From the IMG/VR virus record IMGVR_UViG_3300049215_000844: DNA of 64,000 nucleotides; one strand, 5' to 3'. How positions within the stretch are numbered: the stretch's first letter is position 1; every line of letters begins with the position of its first letter. The notes below the pieces were generated by a model that was not told where the DNA came from, searched no databases, and worked only from the letters and a program-made list of their open reading frames with translations. Made by a program: the position numbers and the translations under genes. The stretch is from an uncultured virus (IMG/VR IMGVR_UViG_3300049215_000844) (lineage: Duplodnaviria; Heunggongvirae; Uroviricota; Caudoviricetes). Shown one piece after another: positions 937 to 18,207 of the stretch.

Positions 937-1161
937 ATGGGAATCTTCTCCGCACCTTCGACACCCTACGTTCCGCCGATCACGACGATCGCGGCGCCGC
1001 CGCCGGCACCGACGCCGGTCGACAAGGCGGCCGAGGACGCCGCCGCCCGCACCAGGGCCCAGCTCGCCGCCGCGGCGGGTTACGGCGCGACCAACCCGAC
1101 CGGCGGGCAGGGCGTGCCCGGCGCCGCCGGCACTTCCTACAAGACCCTGCTGGGAGCCTGA
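937..1161 (+). CDS. Small virion protein preceding the portal (Bbp22/T7 gp7.3-like position)
   Basis: Pro-rich N-terminus, C-terminal KTLLG motif typical of this gene slot. Confidence 0.65.
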   Translation: MGIFSAPSTPYVPPITTIAAPPPAPTPVDKAAEDAAARTRAQLAAAAGYGATNPTGGQGVPGAAGTSYKTLLGA

Positions 1162-1162
1162 C

Positions 1163-2926
1163 ATGGCCGACGCCCCCCACGCGCCGTCGCGCGGCGACGT
1201 TTACGATCCCGCGCTGCGCGCCTACTACGTGAACCGCCTGGCGGCGCTCGACCGCGAGCGCAGCTCCTACTGGCCGACCTGGAAGGACATCGCGCAACAC
1301 TTCGCGCCGCGGCGCGGCCGCTTCGTGACCGGCGCCGGCGACCAGTCGCGCCGCGGCAGCCGGCGCGACCAGCGCCTGATCGACAACACGCCGCTCATCG
1401 CCCAGCGCACCATGGCCTCGGGCATGATGGCCGGCATCTCCTCGCCGGCGCGGCCGTGGTTCCGCCTGCGGCTCGCCAACGATGCCGCCAACCGCGTGCC
1501 GGGCGTGAAGACCTGGCTCGACGAGGTGCAGAAGCGGCTGCTCCACGTCTTCGCGCGCTCCAATCTCTACAACTGCCTGCACACGCTCTACGGCGAGCTC
1601 GGCACCTTCGGCAGCGCCGTGCTGTGGGTCGACGAGGACCACGAGGACGTGGTGCGCGGCTACACCCTGACCGCCGGCGAGTACTGGCTCGCCTCGTCCA
1701 GCCGGCTGGCGGTCGACACGCTCTACCGCACCATGTGGTGGACGGCGCGCCAGATCGTCGACGCCTTCGGCCGCGACGCGGTGAGCCCCGCCGTGCTCGC
1801 CGCCCACGACAACGGCCAGCTCGACCTCGAGTTCGAGATCGTGCACGCGCTGGAGCCCAACCCCAATGCGGCGGCGCGCGATGCCGTGGCGCCGGGCGGC
1901 GCCGTCGACTGGAGCGGCCGGCTGGCCGCGCGCTTCGCGGTGCGCTCGGCGTGGTTCGAGCGCGGCCGGCAGGGCGAGGACGGCCGCGCCCTGCTGCGCG
2001 TCTCGGGCTACGAGGAATTCCCGGCCATGTGCCCGCGCTGGGAGGTCGCCGGTTCCGACAGCTACGGCTGGGGGCCGGGCTGGACGGCGCTGGGCGACAG
2101 CCAGCAGCTGCAGACCCAGCAGCGCCGCAAGCTGGAGGCCATCGACAGGATGGTGAAGCCGCCGATGGTCGGCCCGCCGTCGCTGCGCAACGAACCGGCC
2201 TCGCTGCTGCCCGGCGGCATCACCTACGTGGCCGATCCGTCGGGCCAGGGCTTCCGGCCGGCGATCGACGTGCGGCTCGATCTCGCGGCGCTCGGCGGCG
2301 ACATCCAGGAGACGCAGGGCCGCATCAAGAGCGCCTTCTACGCCGACCTCTTCCTCATGCTGGCCGAGAGCGACCGGCGCGAGATCACGGCGCGCGAGAT
2401 CGACGAGCGGCACGAGGAGAAGATGCTGATGCTGGGGCCGGTGCTCGAGCGCCTGCACGACGAGCTGCTCGATCCGCTGGTGACGCGCGTGTTCAACATC
2501 ATGGCGCGCCACGGGCTGATCCCGCCGCCGCCCCGGCTGGCCGACGGGCGCGGCCTCAACCTCGCAACCATGCAGGTCGAGTTCATCTCGATCCTGGCGC
2601 AGGCGCAGAAGGCGGTGAGCGCCGGCGCCATCGAGCGCTTCTGGCAGTTCGGCGCGCAGATCGGCGCCATCAAGCCCGAGGCGCTCGACCGGCTCGACGC
2701 CGACGGCACCATGGACGCCTACGCCGACATCACCGGCGTGCCGGGCCAGACCGTCGTGCCCCTGGCCGATGCCCGCAAGGTGCGCGACGCGCGCGCCCAG
2801 GCGGTCCAGGAGCAGAACCAGATGGCGGCCGCCGAGCGCATCGCCGCCATCGGCAAGACGGCGAGCGACATCGATGTCGGCGGCGGCGCGAACGCCGTCG
2901 GCGCGATGCTGGGGAGGTCGCCGTGA
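1163..2926 (+). CDS. Portal / head-to-tail connector (T7 gp8 / BPP-1 Bbp21 type)
   Basis: SSPARPWFRL, FGSAVLWVDED, YG.GPG..ALGD, ITAREIDERHEEKMLMLGPVLERLHDELLDPL. Confidence 0.92.
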   Translation: MADAPHAPSRGDVYDPALRAYYVNRLAALDRERSSYWPTWKDIAQHFAPRRGRFVTGAGDQSRRGSRRDQRLIDNTPLIAQRTMASGMMAGISSPARPWFRLRLANDAANRVPGVKTWLDEVQKRLLHVFARSNLYNCLHTLYGELGTFGSAVLWVDEDHEDVVRGYTLTAGEYWLASSSRLAVDTLYRTMWWTARQIVDAFGRDAVSPAVLAAHDNGQLDLEFEIVHALEPNPNAAARDAVAPGGAVDWSGRLAARFAVRSAWFERGRQGEDGRALLRVSGYEEFPAMCPRWEVAGSDSYGWGPGWTALGDSQQLQTQQRRKLEAIDRMVKPPMVGPPSLRNEPASLLPGGITYVADPSGQGFRPAIDVRLDLAALGGDIQETQGRIKSAFYADLFLMLAESDRREITAREIDERHEEKMLMLGPVLERLHDELLDPLVTRVFNIMARHGLIPPPPRLADGRGLNLATMQVEFISILAQAQKAVSAGAIERFWQFGAQIGAIKPEALDRLDADGTMDAYADITGVPGQTVVPLADARKVRDARAQAVQEQNQMAAAERIAAIGKTASDIDVGGGANAVGAMLGRSP

Positions 2927-2940
2927 GAAGCGCCGCGACG

Positions 2941-3204
2941 ACCCCCTCCGCCGCGATGACGCGGCACCTCCCCCCAGAGGGGGGAGGCGGGGCTCCTTCC
3001 TTGTTCCTCTCCCCAGAGGAGGGAGGCGGGGCTCCTTCCTTGTTCCTCTCCCCAGAGGAGGGAGGCGAGGCTCCTTCCTTGTTCCTCCCCTCAGAAGAGG
3101 GCGGCGAGGCTCCTTCATTGTTCCTCCCCCCGGAGGACGGAGGCGAGGCTCCATCCTTGTTCCTCCCCCGTCTCGGGGGAGGTGGCCCGCAGGGCCGGAG
3201 GGGG
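2941..3204. repeat. Five tandem 39-bp units (2965-3159) inside a pair of inverted CCTCCCCC/GGGGGAGG palindromic elements
   Basis: Unit TTCCTCTCCCCAGAGGAGGGAGGCGGGGCTCCTTCCTTG repeated head-to-tail with progressive degeneration; flanks CCCCCTCCG..CACCTCCCCC and GGGGGAGGTG..CGGAGGGGG. Confidence 0.9.
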
Positions 3205-3211
3205 CCGGGCC

Positions 3212-3547
3212 ATGGCTGACACCGGCGAACTGGGCAGCCAGCGCGGCGAGGAGCAGCGCAACAAGGCGATAAAGGCGCGCGCGCTGCAGGCCGACGACGC
3301 CTTCCGCTGGATCATGAACGACGAGCGCGGCCGCAAGGTCGTGTGGAGCCTGCTCGACCGCGCCGGCGTGTTCCGCAGCTCCATGGCGGCCACGCCCGAG
3401 CTCACCGCCTTCAACGAGGGCCGCCGCGACATGGGCCTCGCGCTGCTGGCCGACATCATGCGGCTGGCGCCCGAGCTCTACACCCGCATGGCCGCCGAGG
3501 CCGCCGTCAAACCCCGATCGAACGACAAGGACAACGAACATGGCTGA
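3212..3547 (+). CDS. Bbp19-like phage protein
   Basis: FRWIMNDERGRKVVWSLLDRAGVFRSS..TAFNEGRRDMGL signature; position after portal. Confidence 0.8.
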   Translation: MADTGELGSQRGEEQRNKAIKARALQADDAFRWIMNDERGRKVVWSLLDRAGVFRSSMAATPELTAFNEGRRDMGLALLADIMRLAPELYTRMAAEAAVKPRSNDKDNEHG

Positions 3548-4223
3548 GCAGACCGCGACGACTCCGACGAGCCGCATCCCGAACGCGACCCCGAACGCGA
3601 CCCCGACCGCCGCTGCGGCTGCGACCGCGACCGCCGAGGCCGCGGCGGCCAATCCCGAGCCGGCGCTGCTCGGCGGGCAACCGGCGAGCGGCGCATCGTC
3701 CGCCGATGCGGAAGGCGACGCCGCGCCCGCCGCGACGCCGGCGGCCTACGAGGCCTTCCGCCTGCCCGACGGCGTCGCGCTCGACGAGACCTCGCTGGCC
3801 GACGCCACGCAGCTCTTCCACGAGGCGCGGCTCGACCAGGCGACGGCGCAGAAATTCATCGACCTTGCCGTGTCGCGCGAACAGGCCGCCGCCCGCCGGG
3901 GCGTGCAGGCCTTCGTCGACCTGCAGAACAAATGGACCGGAGAGGTGAAGGCCGATCCCGAAATCGGCGGCGACAAGCTCACGGCCTCGCTGGCCGCGGC
4001 GGGCCGCGCGATCGATCGCCTGAACGTCGCCGGCCTTCGGGAGGCACTGCACCTGACGGGGGCGGGCAACAACCCCGCCATTGTCAGGGCGTTCGTGCGT
4101 CTCGGGCAGATGCTCTCGGAGGACAGGTTCGCGCCGGGCCGCAACGCCGCGCCGACCCCGCCGAGATCGCCGGCCGACGTCATCTACGACGGCAGCCCGC
4201 GCGGCACCGTCGGCAACCCCTGA
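3540..4223 (+). CDS. Capsid scaffolding/assembly protein
   Basis: Low-complexity N-terminus, ADPEIGG, TGAGNNPAIVRAFVRLGQMLSED; directly before capsid gene. Confidence 0.8.
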   Translation: MAEQTATTPTSRIPNATPNATPTAAAAATATAEAAAANPEPALLGGQPASGASSADAEGDAAPAATPAAYEAFRLPDGVALDETSLADATQLFHEARLDQATAQKFIDLAVSREQAAARRGVQAFVDLQNKWTGEVKADPEIGGDKLTASLAAAGRAIDRLNVAGLREALHLTGAGNNPAIVRAFVRLGQMLSEDRFAPGRNAAPTPPRSPADVIYDGSPRGTVGNP

Positions 4224-4250
4224 TCAACCAATCCCCAGGAGACCTGACAC

Positions 4251-5272
4251 ATGGCAACCCTCGCCTCTTCGGCCCTCACGCTCGCGGAGTGGGCCACCCG
4301 ACTGGAGCCCGGCGGCAAGCCCGCCGCGGTGATCGAACTGCTCGGCCAGACCAACGAGATGCTGGCCGACATGCTGTGGATGGAGTGCAACGACGGCGCG
4401 GGCCACCGCACCACCGTGCGCACCGGCCTGCCCGGCGCCACCTGGCGCCTGCTCAACTACGGCGTCGCCAAGTCCAAGAGCACGACCGCCAGGTGCGCGA
4501 CGCCACCGGCATGCTCGAGGCCTACAGCGACATCGACAAGGCGCTGGCCGACCTGAACGGCAACACCGCCGAGTTCCGCATGGGCGAGGACATGGCCTTC
4601 ATCGAGGCGATGAACCAGAACATGCAGGGCACCGTGGTCTACGGCAGCACCGCCGCCAACCCCGAGCGCTTCACCGGCCTCGGCCCGCGCTTCAGCTCGC
4701 TGTCGGCCAGCAACGGCGTCAACATCGTCGATGCCGGCGGCACCGGCTCGACCAACACGTCGATGTGGCTGGTCGGCTGGGGCCAGAACACCTGCCACGG
4801 CCTGTTCCCCAAGGGCAGCAAGGCCGGCCTGCAGGTGCGCGACCTCGGCGAGGTGCCGCTCTACGACACCAGCAGCAACATCTACCAGGGCTATCGCACG
4901 CACTTCAAATGGGACTGCGGGCTGTCGGTGCGCGACTGGCGCTTCGTGGTGCGCATCGCCAACATCAACGTGAGTTCGGGCGCGGTCACCGCGACCGGCC
5001 TCGTCAACTCGCTGATCGCGGCGGTCAACCGGCTGCCCTTCGTCAGCGCCGCCGGCAACAGCCCGCCGCCGGGCGGCACGCGGCCCGGCCAGGTCAACAC
5101 CGTGTTCTACTGCAACCGCACGGTGCGCGCCGCGCTCGACATCCAGGCGATGGCCAAGACCAACAACTTCCTCACCCTGGAGACGCGGGACAGCAAGCCC
5201 TACACGGCGTTCCGCGGCATCCCCATCCGCATCTGCGACCAGATCCTCAACAACGAGGCGCGCATCGTCTGA
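4251..5272 (+). pseudogene. Major capsid protein (BPP-1 Bbp17/epsilon15 gp7 type) split by a 1-nt frameshift near 4488-4491 (true lesion or sequencing error)
   Basis: ORF 4251-4556 gives the N-terminus (TLAEWA..HRTTVRTGLP..SKSTTA); the frame of 3932-5272 continues QVRDATGMLEAYS..FRGIPIRICDQILNNEARIV. Confidence 0.85.
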
Positions 5273-5301
5273 CGCCTTCAACCTTCAAGGAGAATTCGAC
5301 C

Positions 5302-5748
5302 ATGCTTCTCGACAAACAGAACCAGTTCTCGGACGCGCAGGCGGTCACCGACCACACCGCGGACACCCCGAGCAGCAACGTCATCGACCTCGGCATCGCC
5401 CGCGACGTGGGCGGCTCCGTGACGGCACAGCTCCACCTGCTGTGCGAGGTCAGCACCGCCTTCGCCTCGGGCGGCTCGGCGACCCTCCAGGTCAAGGTGC
5501 AGGGCAGCAACGACAACAGCTCGTTCGTCGACCTGTACGCCAGCCCGGCGGTCGCCGTGGCGAGCCTCGCGCAGGGCTACCGCTTCCTGCCGGGGCCGCT
5601 GATCGCGCGGCTCAACGACACGCTCTACCGCTATGTCCGCCTGGACTACGTGGTGGGCACCGCCGACATGACCGCGGGCCGGCTCACGGCGGCGCTGGTG
5701 CCGTCGCTCGTCGCCCTCGACACCTACGCGCGCGGCTACACCGCGTAG
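5302..5748 (+). CDS. Capsid cement protein (Bbp16-like)
   Basis: MLLDKQNQFSDAQAVT..SSNVIDLG..RYVRLDYVV; AAGGAG RBS; follows capsid gene. Confidence 0.8.
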   Translation: MLLDKQNQFSDAQAVTDHTADTPSSNVIDLGIARDVGGSVTAQLHLLCEVSTAFASGGSATLQVKVQGSNDNSSFVDLYASPAVAVASLAQGYRFLPGPLIARLNDTLYRYVRLDYVVGTADMTAGRLTAALVPSLVALDTYARGYTA

Positions 5749-5815: not shown

Positions 5816-6493
5816 ATGGCCACCGTGACCGACATCTGCAACGCCGCGATCTCCCACTGCGGCACGCGCAGCAAGATCAGCTCGATCGACGAGGGCAGCG
5901 CCGAAGCCGGCGCCTGCCTGACGCACTTCGCGCTGGTGCGCGACGCCACGCTGCGCGCCTTCGACTGGAACTTCGCGCGCCTCACCGTGGGCCTCGCCCG
6001 GCTGCAGGATCCGCCCGCCCGCTGGGCCTGCAAATACGCGCTGCCGACCGACTGCGTGCGCCTGCGCCGCCTCAACGACGTGCCGCTGCCGGCGCTGCCC
6101 GAGACGTTCTGCGAGCTGGCGGCCGACCGCGACGGCAGCGGCGCGTTCATCGGCGTGATCCTGACCGACGCCAGCCCGGTGAGCGCGATCTACACCGCGC
6201 GCGTCGAGGATCCCAACCGCTGGGACCACGGCTTCGTCGATGCCGTGACGTACGGCCTGGCGAGCCGCGTCTGCTTCGAGCTCACCGGCAAGGAGGAGCG
6301 CGCGAAGGAGCTGACGCAGCTGTGGCAGGCCATGCTGATGACGGCCGGCGCCGAGATGGCCAACGAAGGCTCCGCCTTCAGCCGGGCCTGGATGCCCGAG
6401 GCGCTGCAGGCGCGCGGCTTCGACGACGGGCTGACGGAGTTCGGCCAGGTCGCCGCGCCCTATCCGTGGCCGAACGGGCGGCCGTCGTCGTGA
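5816..6493 (+). CDS. Head-tail adaptor (tail tubular protein A-like)
   Basis: DICNAAISH, WNFAR, YALPTDCVRL, IYTARVED motifs. Confidence 0.8.
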   Translation: MATVTDICNAAISHCGTRSKISSIDEGSAEAGACLTHFALVRDATLRAFDWNFARLTVGLARLQDPPARWACKYALPTDCVRLRRLNDVPLPALPETFCELAADRDGSGAFIGVILTDASPVSAIYTARVEDPNRWDHGFVDAVTYGLASRVCFELTGKEERAKELTQLWQAMLMTAGAEMANEGSAFSRAWMPEALQARGFDDGLTEFGQVAAPYPWPNGRPSS

Positions 6494-6635: not shown

Positions 6636-8714
6636 ATGACGACGCTCCCGGTCATCCAGCCGTCCTTCGCGGCCGGCGAGCTGTCGCCGTTCCTCCATGG
6701 CCGCGTCGATTTCGCCAAGTTCCATGTCGGCGCGCGGACGATGCTCAATTTCTTCGTGCATCCGCACGGCGGCGCCTCGAACCGGCCGGGCACGATGTTC
6801 ATCGGCGAGGTCGCCGACAGCACGGTGCGCCATCGCCTGGTCCCGTTCCAGTTCCGCGCCTCGCCGGCGGGCCAGAACTACGCCCTGGTGTTCGGCGACC
6901 TCACGATGCAGATCGTGATGTTCGATGCCGAAGTTGGCGCGGCGGGCTTCGTCGAAAGCGCGCCCGGCGTGCGCTACACGCTCGCCACGCCCTATGCCGC
7001 GGCGGATCTCGCGCGGCTGAAGTTCGTGCAGTCGGCCGACACCATGACCGTCGTGCATCCGTCCCACGCGCCGCGCCAGCTGACGCGCACCGGCCACGCG
7101 GCGTGGACGCTCGCCACCGTCACCTTCGCGCCGTCCACCGGCGCACCGTCGGGCCTCGCCGCCGGCGCGCCCGGCACCTCGACCTATGTCGCGGTCACGG
7201 CGATCGCCGACGCCACGGGCGAGGAGAGCCTGCCCTGCGCCGGCGCCGGCTCGTCCTCGGCGTCGGACGCGTGGAGCTGGAGCGCCGTGGCGGGCTGCTC
7301 GACCTACAACGTCTACAAGCAGAAGGGCTCGATCTACGGCTTCGTCGCCCAGGTGCAGACCAACGGCTGGACCGACGCCAACATCGACCCCGACATCGGC
7401 AACACGCCGCCCGGCTCGCGCAACCCCTTCGCGGCGGGGGCGGGCTACTGGCCGTCCTGCACCACCTACTACCAGCAGCGCCAGGTGTTCGCGAACAGCA
7501 CGACCTACCCGCAGACGCTGTGGTTCTCCAACACCGGCGCCTTCAACAACATGAACGTGGCCGAGCCGACGCGCGACACCGACGCCATCACGCGCGCCCT
7601 GACCGGCCGGCAGGTCAACGCGGTGCGCCATCTGGTGGAGTGCGGCAGTTCGCTCCTGATCATGACCTCCGGCGCGGAGTGGCGCTGCTGGCCGGGCGCC
7701 GCCTCGAGCGCGCTGACGCCCGCCTCGTGCGTGACCCTGCCGCAGACCTCGCACGGCTGCTCCGACGTGCCGCCGATCTGGACCGAGAACGCGCTGCTGT
7801 TCGTCAAGGAGCGCGGCAACCGGGTGATCGAGCTGCGCTTCGACGTGCTGCAGGACCAGTGGCAGGCGTCCGACAGGAGCGTGCTCAGCCAGCACCTGGT
7901 CTACGACACGACGGGACAGTTCCAGATCGAGGAATGGGCGTGGGCCGAGGAGCCGTTCAAGATCGTCTGGGCGGTGCGCGACGACGGCCTGCTGCTGGGC
8001 TTCACCTACATGCGCGAGCACGACGTCTATGCCTGGCACCGGCATGCCACCGACGGCACCGTCGAGAGCGTCTGCGCCATCCCCGAGCCGGACGGCTCGG
8101 GCGGCCTGTTCGACGCGGTCTACCTGATCGTCAGGCGGACCGTCGACGGACGGGCCAGGCGCTATGTCGAGCGCATGGTGCCGCGCACCTGGGCCTCGCT
8201 GGCCGACATGTGGTTCGTCGATTGCGGCCTGATGTACAGCGGCGCCCCCGTGACCGAAGTGACGGGCCTCGATCACCTCGAGGGCAAGACCGTGGCCATC
8301 CTGGGCGACGGCTCGGTGGTGCCGAACCAGGTCGTGAGCGGCGGCGCGGTGACGCTCGACGGCAGCTACACGAAGGTGATCGTCGGGCTGCCCTACGAGG
8401 CCGACCTCGAGACGCTGAACCTCGAGCTGCCCGGCGCCGCCACCTCGCAGGGCCAGATGAAGAAGATCGCGCAATGCACGCTGCGCGTGAAGGACGCGCG
8501 CGGCGTGCGGGTCGGCCTCAACCAGGGCGCGGCGCAGGAGGTCAAGCAGCGGCGGAGCGAGTATCTCGGCGCGCCGATGCAGCTCTACGCCGGCGACTGG
8601 ACGGTGGTCGTTCCGACCGAATGGAACCGCGACGGCCGGCTGTTCGTGAAGCAGGCCTACCCCTTGCCGGTGACGATCCTCGATCTGATCCCCGAAGTGA
8701 ACATGGGCGGCTGA
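6636..8714 (+). CDS. Tail nozzle (tail tubular protein B-like)
   Basis: QPSFAAGELSP, QSADTM..HP, YQQR, AWHRHATDG, FVDCG, GLDHLEGKTV. Confidence 0.88.
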   Translation: MTTLPVIQPSFAAGELSPFLHGRVDFAKFHVGARTMLNFFVHPHGGASNRPGTMFIGEVADSTVRHRLVPFQFRASPAGQNYALVFGDLTMQIVMFDAEVGAAGFVESAPGVRYTLATPYAAADLARLKFVQSADTMTVVHPSHAPRQLTRTGHAAWTLATVTFAPSTGAPSGLAAGAPGTSTYVAVTAIADATGEESLPCAGAGSSSASDAWSWSAVAGCSTYNVYKQKGSIYGFVAQVQTNGWTDANIDPDIGNTPPGSRNPFAAGAGYWPSCTTYYQQRQVFANSTTYPQTLWFSNTGAFNNMNVAEPTRDTDAITRALTGRQVNAVRHLVECGSSLLIMTSGAEWRCWPGAASSALTPASCVTLPQTSHGCSDVPPIWTENALLFVKERGNRVIELRFDVLQDQWQASDRSVLSQHLVYDTTGQFQIEEWAWAEEPFKIVWAVRDDGLLLGFTYMREHDVYAWHRHATDGTVESVCAIPEPDGSGGLFDAVYLIVRRTVDGRARRYVERMVPRTWASLADMWFVDCGLMYSGAPVTEVTGLDHLEGKTVAILGDGSVVPNQVVSGGAVTLDGSYTKVIVGLPYEADLETLNLELPGAATSQGQMKKIAQCTLRVKDARGVRVGLNQGAAQEVKQRRSEYLGAPMQLYAGDWTVVVPTEWNRDGRLFVKQAYPLPVTILDLIPEVNMGG

Positions 8715-9184
8715 TGATCCGGATCGTTCCCGCCACGCCGGCGCATGCCGCTTCCATCGAGCTGCGGCCGGGCGATGCGCGCGAGATCGCGGCGCACGGC
8801 ATCGACCCGGCGACGGCGCTGCGCACCAGCCTCGCACGCTCGCTGTGGGCCGACGCCTATCTGGCCGACGGCCCCGCCGGAGCGGAAGTGGCGGCCATCC
8901 TGGGCTGCGGCATGAGCTGCCTGCTGGGCGGCCATCACACGCCGTGGCTGATCACCGGCACGCCGGTCGACCGCCACCGCAAGGATTTCCTGCGCCTGAC
9001 GCGGGCGCGCATCGGCGAGATGCGCCGGCGCTATCCGCTTATGGTCAACTACATCCACGCCGACTACGCCGAGAGCGTGCGCTGGGCGCGCTGGCTCGGC
9101 TTCGAGGTCGCGCCGCCCGAGCCGATGGGGCCGCTCGGCGAGAAGTTCGTCCGCATCACGATGGAGACACAGCATGGGCGTTGA
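8714..9184 (+). CDS. T7 gp13-like internal virion protein (GNAT-like fold)
   Basis: LRPGDAREI..NYIHADYAESVRWARWLGF; start overlaps the nozzle stop codon. Confidence 0.7.
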   Translation: MIRIVPATPAHAASIELRPGDAREIAAHGIDPATALRTSLARSLWADAYLADGPAGAEVAAILGCGMSCLLGGHHTPWLITGTPVDRHRKDFLRLTRARIGEMRRRYPLMVNYIHADYAESVRWARWLGFEVAPPEPMGPLGEKFVRITMETQHGR

Positions 9185-9746
9185 GACCGCCGCTCTCATC
9201 TCGATCGCCTCGACGGCGCTGACCACCGGCCTCGGCATCGCGGGCCAGGCGCAGAAGGCGGCCGCCGAGGCCGGCCAGGCGGGCTACCAGGCCCAGGTGG
9301 CGCGCAACAACCAGGCGCTGGCCGAGATCAACGCGCGCAACGCCGAGGCGCAGGGCCAGGCCGACGCCGGCCGGAGACAGCTCGAGGTGGCGCAGACCGA
9401 GGCCAAGCAAAGGGCCGTGCTGGCGGCGATGGGCGGCGACGTCAACCGCGACAGCAACCTCGACCTGCTGGCCGACACCGCGCGCGCCGGCGCGACCGAC
9501 GTCGCCACGCTGCGCAGCAACGCGGCCTGGAAGGCCTACGGCTATCGCGTGCAGGGGCTGGGCTACGGCGCGGCGGCCGACAGCCAGCGCCTCGCCGCGG
9601 CCAACGCCACGGCCGCGCTGCCCTTCGGCATCGGTTCCTCGCTGCTCACCGGCGCGTCGAGCATCGCGGGCAAGTGGAAGGATGCGTTTGGGTCGCCGGG
9701 CGGCTCATCCGGCGAACTACTTAACTACGGAGCCGCTGCGCCATGA
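9174..9746 (+). CDS. Internal virion (ejection) protein, T7 gp14-like slot
   Basis: Ala/Gln/Gly-rich helical protein, QAQVARNN, synteny. Confidence 0.7.
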   Translation: MGVETAALISIASTALTTGLGIAGQAQKAAAEAGQAGYQAQVARNNQALAEINARNAEAQGQADAGRRQLEVAQTEAKQRAVLAAMGGDVNRDSNLDLLADTARAGATDVATLRSNAAWKAYGYRVQGLGYGAAADSQRLAAANATAALPFGIGSSLLTGASSIAGKWKDAFGSPGGSSGELLNYGAAAP

Positions 9747-9748
9747 TG

Positions 9749-10051
9749 TCATCTAAGCATTCGCAGCCATACGGCGCAGTCGTTGTCGTATCCAGCCCAA
9801 CGCAGACCAAGCGTGTTTCCTTTGGAATCGACGTGCGCTTCGATTCTGCAGTCTCGATTTGGCGGCGTGTTTTCCCAAACGAGAATTGTCCCGCCATCGG
9901 CCCCGACTTTGCGCGTAGGCACACCCCATCGCTGCACGATGAGTTCTGCAGGCTTCCCCTGATACTGAGGCACGACTTGTTCGGCATCCGTTTTGGCCGT
10001 CTCGCATCCCGCCAATGCCAGCGTGAGGAGCACTAGAAATGGCCTTCGCAT
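9749..10051 (-). CDS. Small lipoprotein inserted antisense in the virion operon
   Basis: MRRPFLVLLTLALAGC lipobox signal; visibly lower GC. Confidence 0.6.
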   Translation of the reverse strand: MRRPFLVLLTLALAGCETAKTDAEQVVPQYQGKPAELIVQRWGVPTRKVGADGGTILVWENTPPNRDCRIEAHVDSKGNTLGLRWAGYDNDCAVWLRMLR

Positions 10052-11694: not shown

Positions 11695-12357
11695 TCAGGC
11701 GCGTCTCTCGAAGAAGACGAACCGGCCGCCGCCCGTCGTCCGCGGATTTTCGTAGCGCGGTCTGCCCCAGGTCATGAAGACCTCCGGGGCCCGATAGCCC
11801 AGCCTTTCGATCCTGCCGGCCAGTTCGTCCCACAGATCGGGGACGGCGCGGGGGCGGACGAAGCGCACCAGGTCCATGACGATGCCGCCGTAGCCCGCGC
11901 AGCCGGCGACGATCTCGGCCTCCCGCGCGTCGGTCTCGGTGCGCATGAAATTGCAGAAGACGAGCACCGTGTCGCGGTCCGGCACGAGCTGCGGGTCCGG
12001 GAACAGCGCCTGCAGCGTCGTCAGGGGATAGTCGTTGTCCAGCGTCGCGTACAGCTCCCGCATGGCGGCGATCACCAGTCGGTCCTGCTCGACGGCCACC
12101 GCGTTCATCCCGTTGGCGGCCAGCAGCAGCGCCAGCTGGCCGATGCCCGCTCCGACGTCGAGGTAGCGGCGGTAGCGCCTGCGCGCCGCCAGGAACTCCA
12201 CGATCGGCTGCTCGTAGTTGTTGAAGCCGACCCCGCGCTGCGCGAACCCCTCATAGTAATTCTTGAGTCCGCCCGGGCCGGCCCCCATCGCGGCGATGCG
12301 CGAGCGCAGGAAGTCGACGATCGGCCCGTTCAGCCGATCCGCCGTTACCGCGAGCAT
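11695..12357 (-). CDS. Class I SAM-dependent methyltransferase, copy 1 (220 aa)
   Basis: YLDVGAGIG motif I; paralog of the adjacent gene. Confidence 0.75.
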   Translation of the reverse strand: MLAVTADRLNGPIVDFLRSRIAAMGAGPGGLKNYYEGFAQRGVGFNNYEQPIVEFLAARRRYRRYLDVGAGIGQLALLLAANGMNAVAVEQDRLVIAAMRELYATLDNDYPLTTLQALFPDPQLVPDRDTVLVFCNFMRTETDAREAEIVAGCAGYGGIVMDLVRFVRPRAVPDLWDELAGRIERLGYRAPEVFMTWGRPRYENPRTTGGGRFVFFERRA

Positions 12358-12382: not shown

Positions 12383-13045
12383 TCAGGCGCGGCTCTCGAA
12401 GAAGGCATAGCGGCCGCCCAACGATTCGCGCGGCTTGTCGTAGCGCGGCTTGCCCCAGCTCTTGAAAATCTCCGGCGGCCGGTAGCCGAGGCCTTCGATC
12501 CTGCCGGACAGTTCGTCCCACAATTCGGGCACCGCGCGGGCGCGGACGAAGCGCACCAGGTCCATGACGATGCCGCCGTAGCCGGCGCAACCGGCAACGA
12601 CCTCGGCTTCCCGCTCGTCGGTCTCGGTGCGGATGAAATTGGAGAAGACGAGGATCGTGTCCCGGTCCGGCGCCAACTGGGGATCCGGAAACAGCGCCTG
12701 CAGCGACGTCAGGGGATAGTCCCTGCCCAGCGTCGAGAACAGGTCCTGCATGGCGGCGACCACGCGCCGGTTCTGGTCGACGCCCACCGCCGTCATCCCG
12801 TTGGCCGCCAGCAGCAGCGCGATCTGGCCGATGCCCGCGCCGATGTCCAGGTAGCGGCCGTAGCGCCGTCGCGCCGCCAGGAACTCCGCGATCGGCTGCT
12901 CGTAGCCGCTGAAGCCGATGCCGCGCCTGGCGAAGCCCTCGTAATAGGTCTCGAGCCCCGCCGGACCGGCTCCCATGGCATCGATGCGGGCGCGCAGGAA
13001 GTCGACGATCGGTCCGTTCAGTTGATCGGACGTTACGGTGAGCAT
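12383..13045 (-). CDS. Class I SAM-dependent methyltransferase, copy 2 (220 aa)
   Basis: YLDIGAGIG motif I; same length and colinear with copy 1. Confidence 0.75.
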   Translation of the reverse strand: MLTVTSDQLNGPIVDFLRARIDAMGAGPAGLETYYEGFARRGIGFSGYEQPIAEFLAARRRYGRYLDIGAGIGQIALLLAANGMTAVGVDQNRRVVAAMQDLFSTLGRDYPLTSLQALFPDPQLAPDRDTILVFSNFIRTETDEREAEVVAGCAGYGGIVMDLVRFVRARAVPELWDELSGRIEGLGYRPPEIFKSWGKPRYDKPRESLGGRYAFFESRA

Positions 13046-13128: not shown

Positions 13129-13186
13129 TCGAACAGTTGGCGACCATAATAGGGTCGGGCGGGAAGCCGGCCCTATACCCTGCGGG
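13129..13186 (+). promoter_or_regulatory. Second copy of the conserved motif TCGAACAGTTGGCGACCATAATAGGGT with putative -10 (TATACC 13174-13179)
   Basis: Matches 879-905 at 26/27 positions; precedes the tailspike-lysis unit. Confidence 0.7.
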
Positions 13187-13315
13187 ATGAAGAACCTCCC
13201 GCTCCGCCCCATCCCGCGCCGCCCCAGCCCGCGCCGCCCCATTCCGCTCTGCCCCAGCCCGCGCCGCCACCGCCTGCGGCGCGCCGCCGCCCTCCGTCAG
13301 GGAGGGCTCGCATGA
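13187..13315 (+). CDS. Putative 42-aa Arg/Pro-rich leader peptide coupled (ATGA) to the tailspike gene
   Basis: MKNLPLRPIPRRPSPRRPIPLCPSPRR..GGLA; contains four 15-bp tandem units (13206-13265). Confidence 0.35.
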   Translation: MKNLPLRPIPRRPSPRRPIPLCPSPRRHRLRRAAALRQGGLA

Positions 13316-16089
13316 CCGTGTCGAGCACCTCCTCGCGCGTCGTCTATTCGGGCGACGGCGCGACCACGGCCTGGCCGTTCGCCTTCAGGATCGACGCCGC
13401 CGCCGACATCGTCGTCGTCCTGACCGATGCCGACGGGATCGACCACACGCTCGCCTACGGCAGCCAGTACGCCGTCGCGGGCTTCGGTTCGGAGGCCGGC
13501 GGCACGGTGACCTGTCCGCTTTCGGGCGCGCCCAACGCTGCCGGCACACGGCTCACGATCTACCGCGACGTGGCGGCGACGCAGCCGGCCGCGCTCTCCA
13601 ACCAGGGCGCGATGTGGCCCGGCGTGATCGAGGCGGCGCTCGACCGGCTCACCTTCATCGCCCAGAAACTGGCCGACGGGCTGTCGCGCTCGCTGTCGGT
13701 GGCGCCGACCGACCTGCCGGCGCTCGACGCGCTGCCCAACGGCACGGCGCGCGCCAACAAGGTGCTGGCCTTCGATGCCGCCGGCCAGCCCAACCTGATC
13801 CCGCAGGCCGCGGTGGCCGGCGATGCCGGCGGCACCACGGTGCTGGCGGCCGGCAGCACGGTCGCCCGCCCGCTGGCCGAGCGTTTCGGCGAGGTGCTGA
13901 ACGTCAGGGATTTCGGCGCCGCCGGCGACGGCGGCAGCGACGACACCGCGGCGATCAACGCGGCGCTGGCGATCGGCGGCGCGGTCGTGTTCCCGCCCGG
14001 CACCTACCTGGTGGGCAACCTCGCCTGCACGGTGTCCGGCAGCACGCTGCATTTCATGCCGGGCGCGGAGCTGGTCGACCGGGCCGGCACGACCGGCGCG
14101 CTGCTCTCGACCACGGGCGACGACATCGGCATCCTGGGCCTCAGCGCCACGGTCACGCGGTCGCCGGCGCTGCTCTACACCGTGCTGATGCACGGCAACC
14201 GCAGCATCTTCCAGCGCGGCCGCCTGACTGGCGCGATCGTCAACCCGAACCTGCCGAACAGCTATCCGGCGCCGTCGCGCCACCTCGAGATCCGCGGCGC
14301 CTCGCCGACCCAGTACGCCGACTGCCTGATCGACGACGTGATCGTCACGGGCGGCCAGTCGGGCCTGCGCATCGAGGGCGGCGTGCGGCTCACGATGCGC
14401 GACGTCAAGGCGCTGTGGTGCGCCTGGCACGGCTGCGTGCTGGGCGACGGCCTGCCGGTCAGCCGCACCACGGTGTCGAACTTCCTCGCCGTCGGCTGCG
14501 GGCTGTACGGCCTCACGCTGGGCGCCCTGACCTCGGGCGCGTCGGTCTCTCCCTATCCCTACCGGGACGTCGTGCTCGACGGCTTGATGGCGGTCGGCTG
14601 CGGCTGGAACGCCTACCTCTCGGGCAACGACGCGGCCGTCGGCGCCGGCAAGTACGGCTTCGACATCACGAGCTCGGGGGTCAACAGCGTGGTGGTGCGC
14701 GCCCACGCCTTCCATTGCTGCGAGGGCGGCCTGGAGGCCAAGGGTGCGGTGCCCTCCATCACGATCACGCCGGCCGGCTATCACAACGTCGACATCGAGC
14801 TCGACGAATTCAGCTCGCGCAACTCGGGCGCGGGACTGATCGTCGTCAACAACGAGGCGGCCACCCTTCCGTCGAGCTACCAGTCGTCGATCCGCGCCGT
14901 GGCCAACACGACCTACGTGCAGGCGCCGGCCTGGACCGCCGCGATGCCCTATCAGCCGTTCGACATCGTCGCCTCGGACGGCAGCCAGTGGCTCTGCCTC
15001 GGCAAGCCGGGCGACGGCAGCGGAGCCGGCGCCGGCCCGACCGCCCCGGCCTCCGGCGCCACGGTGCGGCTGCAGACGAACGCCGCCACGTCGAGCGGCG
15101 CGGTCCTGCATTTCGCCTCGACCGCGGGCATCGGCGACGGCATGACCATCTTCGCCGGCCCCCGGCTGGCGGACGGCGCCACGGTGATCGGTCACGACGG
15201 CACGACCGTCATCGCCAGCAGCAACGTCGCGGGCGCCGGCATCGCCGCCAATGCGTGGGTGATCTGCGCCACCGTCAGGAACGACGGCGTCCTGAACTGG
15301 CTCTGCATCGGCAGCGATCCCGGATATCCCTCGGACAGCCGGATCGGCGTCAAGATCACGTCGTCGGCCAACGTCATCCTGACCCTGGCCAGCCTCGGCA
15401 ACTACTGGGGGCTGGTGCCCAGCATGGCCGATTCGTCGGACAACACGATCTCCAACCTGTCGGTGGGAGGCGTCATCAAGGACGCCGCCTACGGCGTGGA
15501 GACCGACGGCACCGGCACCATCAGCGGCATGACGCTGCACGACATGGACATCGAGGCGCGCTATCCGCTCTATGTCGGCAAGGCGGGCTGCACCGAATCG
15601 ATCCGCGCGGTGTCGAGCCGGCTGCGCGCGAACGCCGCGTCGGGCGCCGCGCAGGCGATCAGCAGCAGGGGCGGCACCCTCACGCTGGCGCTCGAGAACG
15701 TGCGTGTCTCGGCCGCCACCCAGGCCGTCTACCTGTCGTCGGCCGGCACCCACACCATCACGGCGGACAACGTCTCGTTCGCCACGGATGCGGGCTCGGG
15801 GCTGCCGCTGCAGCTCGACGGCACGACGACGATGAAGTTCGGCGCGGGCTGCGCGATCGACAACGGCAACCCGGCTTCCTATCCGGGCTACCGCTCGCTG
15901 GCCGGCGCGCTCACCGTGCAGGGCCGCGCGCTGCGCGTCGACCAGACCGCGGCGCCCTCGACCGGCACGCGCGGCAATGTCGGCGAGGTCGTCGAGCCGT
16001 CCGGCCCCGGCTCGGCCGACCGCCATGTCTGCACCGCCGCGGATTTCGCAACGCCGACCTTCACCTGGAAATCGGTCGGCCTGTCCTAG
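13312..16089 (+). CDS. Tail fibre/tailspike with T7-type anchor and beta-helix (pectate lyase-like) domain
   Basis: YSGDGATTAWPFAF anchor, EAALDRLTFIAQ, LNVRDFGAAGDGGSDDTAAINAAL, VVFPPGTYLV. Confidence 0.85.
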   Translation: MTVSSTSSRVVYSGDGATTAWPFAFRIDAAADIVVVLTDADGIDHTLAYGSQYAVAGFGSEAGGTVTCPLSGAPNAAGTRLTIYRDVAATQPAALSNQGAMWPGVIEAALDRLTFIAQKLADGLSRSLSVAPTDLPALDALPNGTARANKVLAFDAAGQPNLIPQAAVAGDAGGTTVLAAGSTVARPLAERFGEVLNVRDFGAAGDGGSDDTAAINAALAIGGAVVFPPGTYLVGNLACTVSGSTLHFMPGAELVDRAGTTGALLSTTGDDIGILGLSATVTRSPALLYTVLMHGNRSIFQRGRLTGAIVNPNLPNSYPAPSRHLEIRGASPTQYADCLIDDVIVTGGQSGLRIEGGVRLTMRDVKALWCAWHGCVLGDGLPVSRTTVSNFLAVGCGLYGLTLGALTSGASVSPYPYRDVVLDGLMAVGCGWNAYLSGNDAAVGAGKYGFDITSSGVNSVVVRAHAFHCCEGGLEAKGAVPSITITPAGYHNVDIELDEFSSRNSGAGLIVVNNEAATLPSSYQSSIRAVANTTYVQAPAWTAAMPYQPFDIVASDGSQWLCLGKPGDGSGAGAGPTAPASGATVRLQTNAATSSGAVLHFASTAGIGDGMTIFAGPRLADGATVIGHDGTTVIASSNVAGAGIAANAWVICATVRNDGVLNWLCIGSDPGYPSDSRIGVKITSSANVILTLASLGNYWGLVPSMADSSDNTISNLSVGGVIKDAAYGVETDGTGTISGMTLHDMDIEARYPLYVGKAGCTESIRAVSSRLRANAASGAAQAISSRGGTLTLALENVRVSAATQAVYLSSAGTHTITADNVSFATDAGSGLPLQLDGTTTMKFGAGCAIDNGNPASYPGYRSLAGALTVQGRALRVDQTAAPSTGTRGNVGEVVEPSGPGSADRHVCTAADFATPTFTWKSVGLS

Positions 16090-16102
16090 AGGAGCAAACG
16101 CC

Positions 16103-16681
16103 ATGGATTACCCTGTTTCCGGCAAGGCACCCGACGTCGCCGGCGCGACGGTCCCGCACGTCCTGAGCGGCGGCCTGGCGGTCCCGGTCGGCGCGGCCTC
16201 GCCGCTGATCACCGCGCCCAACAGCCTGATCGTGCGGGGCACGCAGGCCTTCTCCGGCACGTCCTACGCCGCGGGCAAGTGCATCGGCGGCAAGATCGCC
16301 ATCGCCACCGGGCTCAAGGCGGGGACGGCGCTCTATATCGGCAGCCTCGATCGCTTCGGGGTCGCCTTCCTGGGGACCAACGTGACGGCCTCGCAAAGCC
16401 TGGGCTGCGCGATCTTCGAGCAGGACCCCTCCGGCTCGACCCTGGCGGACGGAAGCACGGCCGGCGTCGCCGCCGCCGACATCCCCAAGCGCGCCTACGG
16501 CGCCTCGGCGGCCGTCACCGACATCAAGGACGGCATCGCTTTCTATGCCTTCAACCTGCCGCCGCGCCTGACGGTCGACGCCGCCGGCGCGATCTACGTC
16601 GCGATCGTCAACGCCTCGGCGGCGGCCATGACCTTCGCCGCCGGCGACACGCTCTACTGGCGGCTGATGCTCGGCTACTGA
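16103..16681 (+). CDS. Hypothetical beta-rich protein (tail-associated?)
   Basis: GAGGAG RBS, in operon between tailspike and holin. Confidence 0.55.
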   Translation: MDYPVSGKAPDVAGATVPHVLSGGLAVPVGAASPLITAPNSLIVRGTQAFSGTSYAAGKCIGGKIAIATGLKAGTALYIGSLDRFGVAFLGTNVTASQSLGCAIFEQDPSGSTLADGSTAGVAAADIPKRAYGASAAVTDIKDGIAFYAFNLPPRLTVDAAGAIYVAIVNASAAAMTFAAGDTLYWRLMLGY

Positions 16682-16696
16682 TCCGGAGGACCGACC

Positions 16697-17029
16697 ATGC
16701 GGCTCGACGACTGGAGCGCGGCGGTCGCGCTCTACATGCCCCCGGCGGCGCTCGGCACGCTGCTCGGCTTCGCCTACGCGCGCGAGATGACGTCGCGCCA
16801 GAAGATCATCTACGGCCTGACGGCGGCGCCGCTCGCGGCGTACGGCGCGGCGGCCACCAAGGAGATCTTCCATTTCGGCGACTGGACGCTCGGCCTGCTG
16901 GCGATCCTCTACGCCGTCGCCGGCATGGACGCGATCGGCGGCCTCGTGATGTTCGGGCGGAAGTTCCGCGACGACCCGATCGGCACGATCCGCAGCGTGC
17001 TGGCGCTGTGGCGGGGGACGTCGTCGTGA
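16697..17029 (+). CDS. Putative holin
   Basis: Small protein with about three hydrophobic segments directly upstream of the lysozyme. Confidence 0.6.
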   Translation: MRLDDWSAAVALYMPPAALGTLLGFAYAREMTSRQKIIYGLTAAPLAAYGAAATKEIFHFGDWTLGLLAILYAVAGMDAIGGLVMFGRKFRDDPIGTIRSVLALWRGTSS

Positions 17030-17102
17030 CCTTCGAATTCGTCCTCGCGGCGGCGCTGCTCGCCGCCTATCTCGCGGTGAAGCACCGGCGATGGAGAGCC
17101 CG

Positions 17103-17543
17103 ATGCAAGTGAGCGGACGCGGCCTGGCGCTGACCATGGCGAGCGAGGGGCTGCGCACGGAAGCCTATCGCGACGGGGCCGGCGTGCCGACCATCGGCTA
17201 CGGGCACACGGCGGGCGTCCGTCTGGGCGACACCTGCACGCCGGAGCAGGCGGCCGACTGGCTGCGCGCCGACCTCGGCATTGCCGAGGCCGCCGTCGAC
17301 CGGCTGGTCCGGGCGCCGATCGGGCAGCACCATTTCGACGCGCTGGCCGATTTCGCCTTCAATCTCGGCGCGGCCAACCTCGGCGGCTCGACCCTGCTGC
17401 GCAGGCTGAACGCCGGCGACCTGGCGGGAGCGGCAGCGGAATTCCCGCGCTGGGTGCATGATGCGCTGGGCCGTGTCGAGCCCGGCCTGGTGACGCGCCG
17501 CAACCGCGAGAGGCAACTGTTCGAGACAGGAGACTGGTCATGA
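17103..17543 (+). CDS. Phage lysozyme (GH24 endolysin)
   Basis: EGLRTEAYRDGAGVPTIGYGHT (E-D-T triad), FDALADFAFNLG, GLVTRRNRERQLF. Confidence 0.93.
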   Translation: MQVSGRGLALTMASEGLRTEAYRDGAGVPTIGYGHTAGVRLGDTCTPEQAADWLRADLGIAEAAVDRLVRAPIGQHHFDALADFAFNLGAANLGGSTLLRRLNAGDLAGAAAEFPRWVHDALGRVEPGLVTRRNRERQLFETGDWS

Positions 17544-17686
17544 AGGACCTACTGATCTTCCTTGCCGGCATCGCCGTCGCCGTGGGGCTGCTGGTCACGC
17601 CGCTCCGGCGCCAGGCGTTCAAGGCGCTGGCGTGGGCGTGGGGCGGGACGGTCGAGCCCGTGCTGAAGTGGCTGTTCCGGCGATGA
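17540..17686 (+). CDS. Small membrane protein in lysis cassette
   Basis: ATGA-coupled; MKDLLIFLAGIAVAVGLLV hydrophobic segment. Confidence 0.5.
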   Translation: MKDLLIFLAGIAVAVGLLVTPLRRQAFKALAWAWGGTVEPVLKWLFRR

Positions 17687-17696
17687 GGGCGCGCAA

Positions 17697-18053
17697 GTGA
17701 ATCCGCTGGCGCTCCTCAGGCTTTCGCCGCTCGGGCTGGCGCCGTGGGCGATCGCGGCGCTGGCCGTGGTGGCGGGCGGCGCCGGCACGCTGTGGTATCG
17801 CGGCGCCTATCACGCGCTCGAGGCGAGCATCGCCCGGGCCGTCGCCGAACAGCAGGAGAAGGACCGCGCGCTCGGCGAACGGCTCCTCGCGGAGCAGCGC
17901 GCCAGCCTGAACGCGCTGCACGACAAGACCCTGGCCTCTCTCAAGGTGGTTTCCGATGCGCCCGTTACGTCCACTTGCGGCCCTGTGCAGCGCGACGCTT
18001 CTCGCGGCGTGCGCGCCATCCTTGGTGGCGGTGCCGCGCCATCCCGACCCTGA
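17697..18053 (+). CDS. Inner-membrane spanin (Rz-like)
   Basis: N-terminal TM helix, coiled-coil, late Cys; overlapped by a lipoprotein gene. Confidence 0.7.
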   Translation: MNPLALLRLSPLGLAPWAIAALAVVAGGAGTLWYRGAYHALEASIARAVAEQQEKDRALGERLLAEQRASLNALHDKTLASLKVVSDAPVTSTCGPVQRDASRGVRAILGGGAAPSRP

Positions 18054-18207
18054 CCTGCTCGCGGCCTGCGTCGATCCCGTGCTGGTCGCCGACCCTGACG
18101 GGGCGAGCGACAACGAGATCGCCGGCGAGCGCATCCGCGTCGCCGAGGCCTACATGGCCTGCAAGCAGCGGCACGCCGCGCTCGCCCGCTGGGTGAAGGG
18201 CGGGTAG
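17956..18207 (+). CDS. Outer-membrane spanin lipoprotein (Rz1-like)
   Basis: Lipobox LLAAC, P.PDLLAAC..P..CKQRHAAL; overlaps the 3' end of the Rz-like gene. Confidence 0.75.
   Translation: MRPLRPLAALCSATLLAACAPSLVAVPRHPDPDLLAACVDPVLVADPDGASDNEIAGERIRVAEAYMACKQRHAALARWVKGG

Follow-up and report, generated by a model that had tools for sequence, protein, structure and literature searches.

Phages of the BPP-1/epsilon15 type carry their genes in the order terminase, small protein, portal and then the rest, and the element described here has the same order in its family. The cultured phages nearest to it by portal protein are a Cobetia phage (44% identity), Caulobacter Rauchvirus phages (43%) and epsilon15 (41%); BPP-1 itself is presumably the type of Rauchvirus. 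As for gene transfer agents (GTAs), the parts of the viriform proposal drawn on here name type I and type II alphaproteobacterial agents and spirochete agents as the genetically defined ones (PMC9662315), with RcGTA (type I), Bartonella (type II) and Brachyspira as examples (Kogay et al. 2022, PMC9662315). Here we describe a cluster of virion and lysis genes at positions 937-18207 of the uncultured virus record IMGVR_UViG_3300049215_000844, of which 64,000 nt were analysed (hereafter the window). A preliminary description, made from the window alone, had proposed that the cluster is a self-contained, possibly vertically inherited GTA-like system.

With a probability of about 0.65, we read the cluster as the late part of a defective copy from a long-lived, vertically inherited, integrase-less lineage of BPP-1/epsilon15-like prophages in soil alphaproteobacteria of the Reyranella group. 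By content it is a member of the BPP-1/epsilon15-type virion family, and by state it is a defective (cryptic) prophage. In the course of events that we propose, a temperate BPP-1-like phage would have been fixed in the chromosome, with its integrase and helicase lost and its repressor kept. It would then have been inherited vertically in Reyranella-group Alphaproteobacteria, with ongoing selection on terminase, head, tail and lysis genes. Host-like cargo would have entered at the junctions of transcription units, each of which begins with a late-promoter-like motif of leaderless layout, and loss of the large ejection proteins would have been stepwise. Repressor, replication-initiator-like gene, terminase and often a Ser/Thr kinase, which in relatives lie up to ~17 kb from portal, would be found left of position 1 here. 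In the window copy the capsid would finally have been split, and the ejection module cut to one shortened protein and partly replaced by genes on the opposite strand.

Frameshift in the capsid gene

The gene for the major capsid protein is interrupted by a real frameshift, a 1-nt deletion at about 4489/4490. Frame 0 covers positions 4251-4493 and frame 2 positions 4490-5272. Positions 2-63 of the PF20911 profile are matched in one frame and positions 63-313 in the other, with the split at profile position 63. The DNA at the break point reads ...ACC GCC AGG..., where relatives read through in frame. One open reading frame (ORF) covers at least 96% of the capsid gene in all 13 other chromosomal copies, and the best ORF of the window covers 77%. 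Apart from the capsid, all eight other reference late genes that were compared are as complete in the window as in the other chromosomal copies.

The site of the deletion is spanned with 0 gaps by Logan contigs of X1 (depth 23), X3/X4 and X5. X1 is the probable source run of the window and so is not independent; X3/X4 and X5 are other samples. An assembly slip as the source of the frameshift was ruled out by these gap-free contigs from three samples. X1 contained the frameshifted form only, at the depth given above. In X3/X4 there was a second variant (depth 10.7 of 16.8), in which an extra G behind 4489 restores the capsid frame. Over window positions 4383-4546, this related strain or variant from another moss sample has many substitutions and an intact capsid frame. 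Rescue of the capsid by programmed frameshifting was judged unlikely, and a slippery X XXY YYZ heptamer was not seen in the sequence of the capsid site.

Because of the capsid frameshift and the reduced ejection module described below, no functional particles are expected, and the window copy should be without infectious or DNA-delivering particles. That its lysis genes and most of its structural genes remain open is consistent with an inactivation not long ago.

Reduction of the ejection module

A complete temperate phage of the family, G139 (44,677 bp, CheckV 100%), is the IMG/VR record behind locus L085 and has three large internal proteins of 1017, 845 and 842 aa (amino acids). The only large internal protein of the window is a shortened one of 535 aa, which can be aligned with three parts of the 1017-aa protein (residues 5-293, 434-558 and 614-765). 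The 845- and 842-aa proteins, like the helicase and integrase of G139, have no relative in the window at E<=1e-5. Short-tail and T7-like internal families are present beside the 535-aa protein (phrog_394, phrog_376, phrog_308, phrog_418/PF24072). In the phage the large ejection proteins total ~2,700 aa; G104, judged by spacing, has ~1,200 aa of them and the window 535 aa, and none stands at the corresponding place in G001, G002 and G005.

The place of the missing ejection genes is occupied in the window by two methyltransferase-like paralogues, 84% identical to each other over 300 nt. Neither the related loci L001-L014 nor the G001-G005 regions contain a homologue of either. The lipoprotein gene inserted before the 535-aa protein (Table 1) has no corresponding gap in G139.

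Chromosomal relatives and the position of terminase

A search with the portal gave 14 loci in genomes of Reyranella and "Enhydrobacter aerosaccus", at 67-82% identity. Many relatives are metagenome bins, and some of their frameshifts may be errors. In the 14 loci, host-like genes (amidohydrolase, TauD, kinases, AMP-binding enzymes) stand directly upstream of p831-portal, and no Pfam terminase was found there. When whole genomes were searched with a phage terminase, 5/5 had one, on the same strand and 3.7-17.3 kb upstream of portal. Nine of the ten chromosomal relatives with enough sequence on the relevant side have a terminase no more than 18 kb from portal, with host-like cargo between (G001, G002, G003, G004, G005, G104, L010, L011 and G079; the exception, G070, is rearranged). 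This terminase is of one type, ~490 aa long (phrog_2 and phrog_5902) and 72-90% identical among copies.

Further upstream, a CI/S24-type repressor is encoded on the opposite strand in G003, G004, G005, G104 and G079, and a replication-initiator-like gene is also found upstream in relatives. A Ser/Thr kinase with a peptidoglycan-binding domain (phrog_2361) lies near terminase in at least four genomes, at 48-63% identity (L007 2377-4557; L005 7109-9556; L010 5212-8790; L008 271-2460). A conserved domain of ~80 aa was seen just before terminase in G139 (L085/L114 4052-4360), G004, G005, G104, G079, L010 and G003. It is present as three repeats in G104 and has no PHROG match in G139; its protein could be a small terminase or another DNA-binding protein. 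A tyrosine integrase within ~40 kb of the element was found in 0/5 genomes, and a helicase of the complete-phage type in none of the 17 chromosomal sequences searched.

The preliminary description had stated that terminase, integrase, repressor and replication genes are absent. This holds for the window: none of these genes is contiguous with the virion genes within its positions 1-22 kb, the terminase, repressor, replication-initiator and kinase of the family have no relative anywhere in it at E<=1e-3, and no tRNA gene was found in it. As a statement that the lineage has no packaging genes it does not hold. The window begins only 936 nt upstream of the cluster, and the missing packaging gene is probably a window-edge effect, because terminase lies at most 18 kb away in nine of ten relatives. 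A block of terminase, repressor and replication-initiator-like gene is probably located left of position 1 in this genome.

The short-chain dehydrogenase (SDR) gene at the left end of the window bears on the same point. The homologue nearest to it among those seen (66.5% identity) stands in the G104/L005 element, after terminase and before portal, and the best match of the window gene in five other genomes is only 57% identical. Since that homologue stands inside an element, the SDR gene of the window may be cargo rather than plain host flank, with terminase further left.

Among IMG/VR records there are 37 related loci, several of which (L073, L075, L084/L085) have the same type of terminase directly before p831. 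The portal of L073 is 80% identical to that of the window, its GC is 0.70 and its terminase is 0.6 kb from p831.

Some chromosomal copies are decaying or rearranged, which speaks against a GTA-like reading: G003 has lost everything after portal and has its terminase in three frames, G070 is rearranged and G052 has a broken portal. G079:C100 (10-33 kb), G058:C42 and G052:C40 have a common inversion, in which the fibre-lysis block is divergent from p831-portal. In G079 terminase follows the internal proteins and is encoded on the opposite strand. Genes of the inverted arrangement are still open in G079 and G058, and clade C has kept this rearranged, non-phage gene order intact.

Proposed vertical descent, selection and distribution

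G003 and G005 have host genes in common on both sides of the element (83-97% identity), which places the two copies at the same locus. G079, G058 and G052 are at the same locus as judged by one neighbour gene that they have in common past the lysis end. For 13 genomes, the groups {G001,G056}, {G003,G005,G025} and {G052,G058,G079,G084} were recovered in the RpoB tree as well as in the portal tree, with support of at least 99 in the Shimodaira-Hasegawa-like approximate likelihood ratio test (SH-aLRT).

Rough ratios of nonsynonymous to synonymous change (dN/dS) for structural genes of the lineage are ~0.1-0.35. Between G001 and G056 dN/dS was 0.10 for portal (dS 0.55), 0.16 for capsid and 0.12 for tail B. 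Between G079 and G058 it was 0.18 for capsid and 0.25 for portal, at dS 0.2-0.3 (0.30 in the flank gene). The window portal gave 0.26-0.35 against G002 or L073, and its tail B 0.24 against G002. The capsid of relatives is intact in 13/13 copies, with dN/dS 0.03-0.18.

The earlier suggestion of a vertically inherited GTA-like cluster, and not a decaying prophage, agrees at the level of the lineage with common loci, clades, selection and lack of integrase. It is not supported for the window copy, which has the capsid frameshift and lacks two ejection proteins, nor some relatives that are clearly decaying. In the same way, the expectation that the particle genes are intact and under purifying selection is borne out by the relatives and not by the window capsid.

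Several observations weigh against our reading of the lineage, or of the copy in the window, or limit it. A complete, integrase-bearing phage of the family exists, and therefore some copies could be independent lysogenisations. The agreement of gene and host trees is restricted to the three shallow clades, which were named after the identity tables had been seen. Deeper nodes differ: portal joins G004 to G082, and RpoB joins G070 to clade A. A Mantel test over all 78 pairs was not significant (Spearman 0.18, p=0.13). The common 'flank' genes of G001 and G056 are cargo inside the element and not outside flanks. The window locus is not syntenic with G001, G003 or G004, its DUF2254 neighbour being 64-69% identical to orthologues located elsewhere, and its flanks match no relative examined; vertical descent of the window copy in particular is therefore only presumed. 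The dN/dS values are plain Nei-Gojobori estimates, rough on a background of 65-71% GC. The terminase of this genome is deduced from relatives; an exact 40-nt pattern from the left end of the window had 0 matches in metagenome contigs, and a Logan contig that matches positions 1-3011 extends past that part by only ~100 nt and supplies no upstream sequence.

A family portal is present in 66/138 genomes of the order to which G001 belongs, and 21 of these portals are at least 69% identical to that of the window. Other tiers of portal in the order are near 50% and at 42-47%. RpoB of most genomes of the order is 93-96% identical to that of G001, whatever the portal tier. One host group thus contains the tiers as separate lineages, none of them universal.

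The 42-47% tier is a compact cluster of ~19 kb, whose genes extend from terminase as far as an internal protein and which occupies one locus in three species (G126, G127 and G129). It lies at ~959.8-978.6 kb of G127:C1 (L059/L060) and was also seen in G027. Its content is two small proteins, terminase, p831, portal, capsid, lysozyme, tail, fibre and internal proteins, and no integrase, repressor or replication family was found when its ORFs were scanned with PHROGs. With dN/dS of 0.03-0.15 and dS that match the host flanks, this compact lineage may be a cleaner GTA-like candidate than the lineage of the window.

A late-promoter-like motif

An exact 24-mer occurs twice in the window, at 882-905 before p831 and at 13132-13155 before the fibre gene, where 0 would be expected. 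Regions upstream of relatives' start codons were aligned, and a common layout was found: a GACC-NN-AAT box, a spacer of ~21 nt, a TATNNT-like box and a start codon 7-9 nt later. This layout implies leaderless transcripts, and we infer that the motif acts as a late promoter. An nhmmer profile built from relatives matches window positions 887-939. The window 24-mer was sought in relatives with up to 6 mismatches and gave only one weak site.

Matches of the profile were found before p831, Bbp19, tail and fibre genes, and in G003 and G005 directly before terminase too. G002 has five copies of the motif. Four stand at the start of blocks, namely those of p831, Bbp19, tail A and fibre, and two of these four follow inserted histidine-kinase/response-regulator genes. 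The inserted genes of G002 (L001 14988-18236, L037 1200-8202) encode PAS histidine kinases, hybrid kinases and a response regulator, and occupy two places, one separating portal from Bbp19 and the other separating Bbp16 from tail A. The complete phage G139 has the same motif before p831 and before the fibre gene, and so the two copies of the window are ancestral. For the same reason the duplicated promoter was rejected as a mark of domestication.

Alternative explanations

The alternative that survives best, unlikely as we consider it, is that the lineage is a domesticated GTA-like, PBSX-like or 'lateral' packaging system, kept by the host because induced cells would package chromosomal DNA and release it, with the window member either working through rescue of its capsid frame or just broken. 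It is favoured by the lack of a nearby integrase (0/5 genomes) and of the helicase (17 chromosomal sequences), by the same locus in related species, by the clades common to RpoB, and by structural genes that are intact in nearly all copies with dN/dS of 0.1-0.35 and dS like that of host flanks. The rearranged gene order that is intact across clade C points the same way, as do the host two-component genes that stand between units of which each keeps the motif. RcGTA is not known to deliver beyond the periplasm, and the loss of large ejection proteins in G001, G002 and G005 would still fit delivery of that kind. On the other side, the window capsid is broken and no slippery heptamer was seen, and G003, G070 and G052 are decaying or rearranged. 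A portal at least 69% identical to that of the window occurs in only 21/138 genomes of the order, despite the RpoB identity of 93-96% in most, and the element is therefore far from universal. The retained CI/S24 repressor of phage type and replication-initiator-like gene point to control in the style of a phage and not of a host. Taken together, the selection data speak for some function of the lineage, and the decayed copies, the patchy distribution and the phage-type repressor speak against a system tightly integrated with the host. It is plausible that the family has a GTA-like function; the lineage might work as a GTA, as a PBSX-like particle or by in-situ packaging of the chromosome.

A more ordinary explanation, which we regard as quite improbable, is an independently acquired defective prophage: a fairly recent lysogeny whose left half was deleted or rearranged away and whose remainder is decaying neutrally. 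Complete integrase-bearing relatives do exist, the IMG/VR contigs closest in GC keep terminase 0.6 kb from p831 (L073), and the window flanks are common to no relative examined. The frameshift, the truncated ejection module and the foreign genes inside the cluster would be expected as well, and dN/dS of the window against its nearest relatives (portal 0.26-0.35) is above that of the other clades. However, GC and third-position GC are fully host-like, and the eight other reference late genes are as complete as in other copies. The breakpoint lies just upstream of the late promoter, which is the place of cargo insertion in the vertically inherited relatives, and the nearest SDR homologue is inside a relative's element. 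A still active temperate phage, with an unrecognised recombinase or replication without excision and with the frameshift as a minority allele, is very improbable: both motifs and the lysis cassette are intact and an intact-frame capsid variant co-occurs in one community, but no recombinase, replication or terminase gene stands in or beside the cluster, X1 shows the frameshifted form only, and two large internal proteins are missing.

Gene content of the cluster and of the rest of the window

ORFs of the window were chosen by third-position GC (GC3) with a filter of our own, and the gene calls have the limits of such a simple rule. The ORFs were then scanned against PHROGs and Pfam; 16 of the 22 scanned proteins had a PHROG match and 11 a Pfam match. 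As shown in Table 1, the plus strand of 937-18207 encodes the BPP-1/epsilon15-type virion genes and a lysozyme/spanin cassette. All matches are of podovirus type, and no tail-tube or tape-measure family was among the PHROG and Pfam matches of the cluster.

Table 1. Features at the left end of the window, with strand and basis of assignment
Feature	Position	Strand	Basis or remark
SDR gene	1..774	+	ORF; directly upstream of cluster
Late-promoter-like motif, copy 1	879..936	+	upstream box GTTGGCTACCATAATAGGG, -10-like box, p831 ATG ~10 nt on
p831, small conserved protein before portal	937..1161	+	phrog_831 E 8e-12; kept upstream of portal in relatives
Portal (head-to-tail connector)	1163..2926	+	PF12236 E 2e-152; phrog_332
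39-nt x 5.2 tandem repeat between portal and Bbp19	2967..3169	.	G/C hairpin per unit; fold z-score only -1.35
Bbp19-like protein	3212..3547	+	PF25181 E 9e-17; phrog_528
Scaffold/protease-like protein	3540..4223	+	phrog_458 E 2e-47
Major capsid protein, GP7 family, split	4251..5272	+	PF20911 in two pieces, E 1.6e-100 and 2.6e-24
Bbp16-like capsid accessory protein	5302..5748	+	PF21190 E 7e-19
Tail protein A	5816..6493	+	phrog_394 E 3.5e-44
Tail protein B	6636..8714	+	phrog_376 E 2e-198
Internal virion protein	8714..9184	+	phrog_308 E 2e-29
Internal virion protein, T7 gp14-like	9174..9746	+	phrog_418 E 9e-25; PF24072 E 4e-7
Inserted lipoprotein gene	9749..10051	-	ORF; signal peptide and LAGC lipobox read by eye; weak phrog_3716 match
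Shortened internal (ejection) protein, 535 aa	10039..11646	+	phrog_1044/10475, N-terminal part only
Two tandem methyltransferase-like paralogues	11695..12357 and 12383..13045	-	weak Methyltransf_23/25 matches below Pfam cut-off
Late-promoter-like motif, copy 2	13129..13186	+	before fibre gene, same position as in G139
42-codon ORF, largely 15-nt repeat	13187..13315	+	stop overlaps fibre ATG (ATGA)
15-nt x 4.8 repeat	13197..13268		within 42-codon ORF
Tail fibre/tailspike, 925 aa	13312..16089	+	phrog_1640 E 2e-33 (N-terminus); PF12708 E 3e-12
Conserved 192-aa protein after fibre gene, no family	16103..16681	+	N-terminus conserved in G002, G005, G079, G058
Holin candidate, 110-aa membrane protein	16697..17029	+	position; hydrophobic stretches read by eye; no family match
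Endolysin (phage lysozyme)	17091..17543	+	PF00959 E 1e-41; phrog_7 E 2e-60
Putative Rz-like protein	17697..18053	+	no family match; homologues in G002, G079, G058
Rz1-like lipoprotein overlapping Rz	17956..18207	+	phrog_456 E 4e-6; PF23793 below cut-off

Several details of the preliminary description can be compared with these features. A podovirus-type virion with a full holin-endolysin-spanin cassette had been read from the sequence. The virion families, the lysozyme and Rz1 were confirmed by family matches; the holin and Rz are assigned by position, hydrophobicity read by eye and weak homologues; in G001, G004, G079 and G139 the ORF that takes the place of the holin candidate is 29-41% identical to it. 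The borders were read correctly: the cluster starts 163 nt after the end of the SDR gene (774 to 937), and it ends against a convergent gene, a 507-aa ORF that ends at 18260, 53 nt beyond the end of Rz1. In a window of ~71% G+C, GC of the cluster is indeed like that of the flanking genes: it is 0.685-0.747 per kb inside the cluster and 0.706-0.722 to its right, and the leftmost 1 kb, largely taken up by the SDR gene, has 0.713. Third-position GC of the cluster is likewise host-like. Two further points have to be corrected. The cluster is not an uninterrupted operon, as three genes lie on the minus strand (Table 1). Translational coupling, said to be intact across the palindromic repeats, is interrupted at the 39-nt repeat, which leaves 285 nt between portal and Bbp19.

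The 42-codon ORF before the fibre gene may be a mere by-product of the 15-nt repeat that it contains. The fibre has a conserved N-terminal adaptor followed by a beta-helix of the pectate-lyase type. A perfect 22-nt inverted repeat is formed by 1981-2002, inside the portal gene, and 18229-18250, in the gap between Rz1 and the convergent ORF; chance, a terminator or a recombination scar are possibilities.

Downstream of the cluster there are host-type genes (DUF2254, carbonic anhydrase), and then an island of low GC at 22600-31000 (0.51-0.60 against ~0.70). The island contains a Vsr endonuclease gene (23098-23619) and, at 28615-30185, a SMODS nucleotidyltransferase next to a SLATT_4 effector, which looks like a defence pair of the cyclic-oligonucleotide-based antiphage signalling (CBASS) kind beside an integrase. 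The rest of the window (31024-64000) is a separate, apparently complete myovirus-type prophage unrelated to the podovirus cluster. It has an integrase (31024-32331, minus strand), an S24/HTH repressor (39588-40643) and a gpA terminase (52642-54735). It also encodes DNA polymerase III beta-like, ParB, primase, HerA-like ATPase, ParB-methylase, gpW, lambda-type portal, capsid E, sheath, tube and chaperone proteins. As a source of the podovirus cluster genes this prophage was rejected, as it explains none of them.

Implications

A bolder proposal, which we put forward tentatively and hold to be unlikely, is that the Reyranella-group elements are an independently exapted, podovirus-derived device for GTA-like transfer or in-situ packaging ('lateral transduction'). 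A single leaderless late promoter would co-regulate its units, dispersed between genes of the host, selection would have kept them for tens of millions of years, and the member in the window would have been knocked out recently. GTAs are known to have arisen only a few times, and the lineage is a concrete candidate for another, independent domestication, because integrase and helicase are lost, host genes are tolerated between operons, the elements diverge together with their hosts and virion genes are under selection. The candidate is testable, since G001, which has an intact copy, is a culture-collection isolate. The articles on Reyranella prophages, as far as the literature listings drawn on extend, gave no account of such an element, and no BPP-1-like GTA was among the titles listed on gene transfer agents and podoviruses.

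Even if the elements are only 'grounded' prophages, as we prefer to read them, the lineage illustrates how a temperate podovirus may be dismantled stepwise inside a chromosome: cargo would enter at promoter-bearing junctions, ejection genes would be the first to be lost, blocks would be inverted and finally, in the window, the capsid would be frameshifted. It also carries a warning for annotation, as clusters at the edge of a window that seem to be 'terminase-less' may have their terminase kilobases away behind cargo.

Comparison with known phages and particle systems

The complete phage G139 is like the window in its late gene order from p831 to holin, and 14 of its late proteins match at 29-84% identity (portal 61%, capsid 81-84%, tail B 58%). 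Unlike the window, it has terminase directly before p831, a DnaB-type helicase, a tyrosine integrase, Erf, NinB, HNH and a CI/S24 repressor, and the full set of three internal proteins, of which the window has the shortened first only. From this gene set the chromosomal elements are reduced derivatives of such a phage. BPP-1-like phages (Rauchvirus, e.g. Caulobacter phage Jess A) and Salmonella phage epsilon15 share the Head-tail_con, GP7 capsid, Bbp19 and Bbp16 families with the window. They differ in being complete viruses, and in their terminase, which is phrog_979 as opposed to phrog_5902 of this family.

RcGTA is siphovirus-like, and the window cluster is unlike that type in having no siphovirus tail-tube or tape-measure family. 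PBSX-type defective prophages and the unexcised prophages that perform lateral transduction are myovirus (PBSX) or siphovirus systems of Firmicutes. By analogy, the lineage may resemble them in being a resident phage that is unable to leave, that is controlled by an SOS-type repressor and that might carry out in-situ packaging of host DNA. What defines a GTA is the packaging of host DNA: its particles contain host DNA and at most part of its own genes, and a small subpopulation makes them under host control. Like GTAs, as these are characterized in the parts of the viriform proposal used here, the lineage, as judged from the relatives, has phage-derived particle genes that are inherited vertically with the chromosome, without integrase and under purifying selection, and that evolve in step with the host (PMC9662315). 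Unlike them it has a podovirus-type module, retains a phage-type repressor and is not universal in its host group, and the copy described here is broken.

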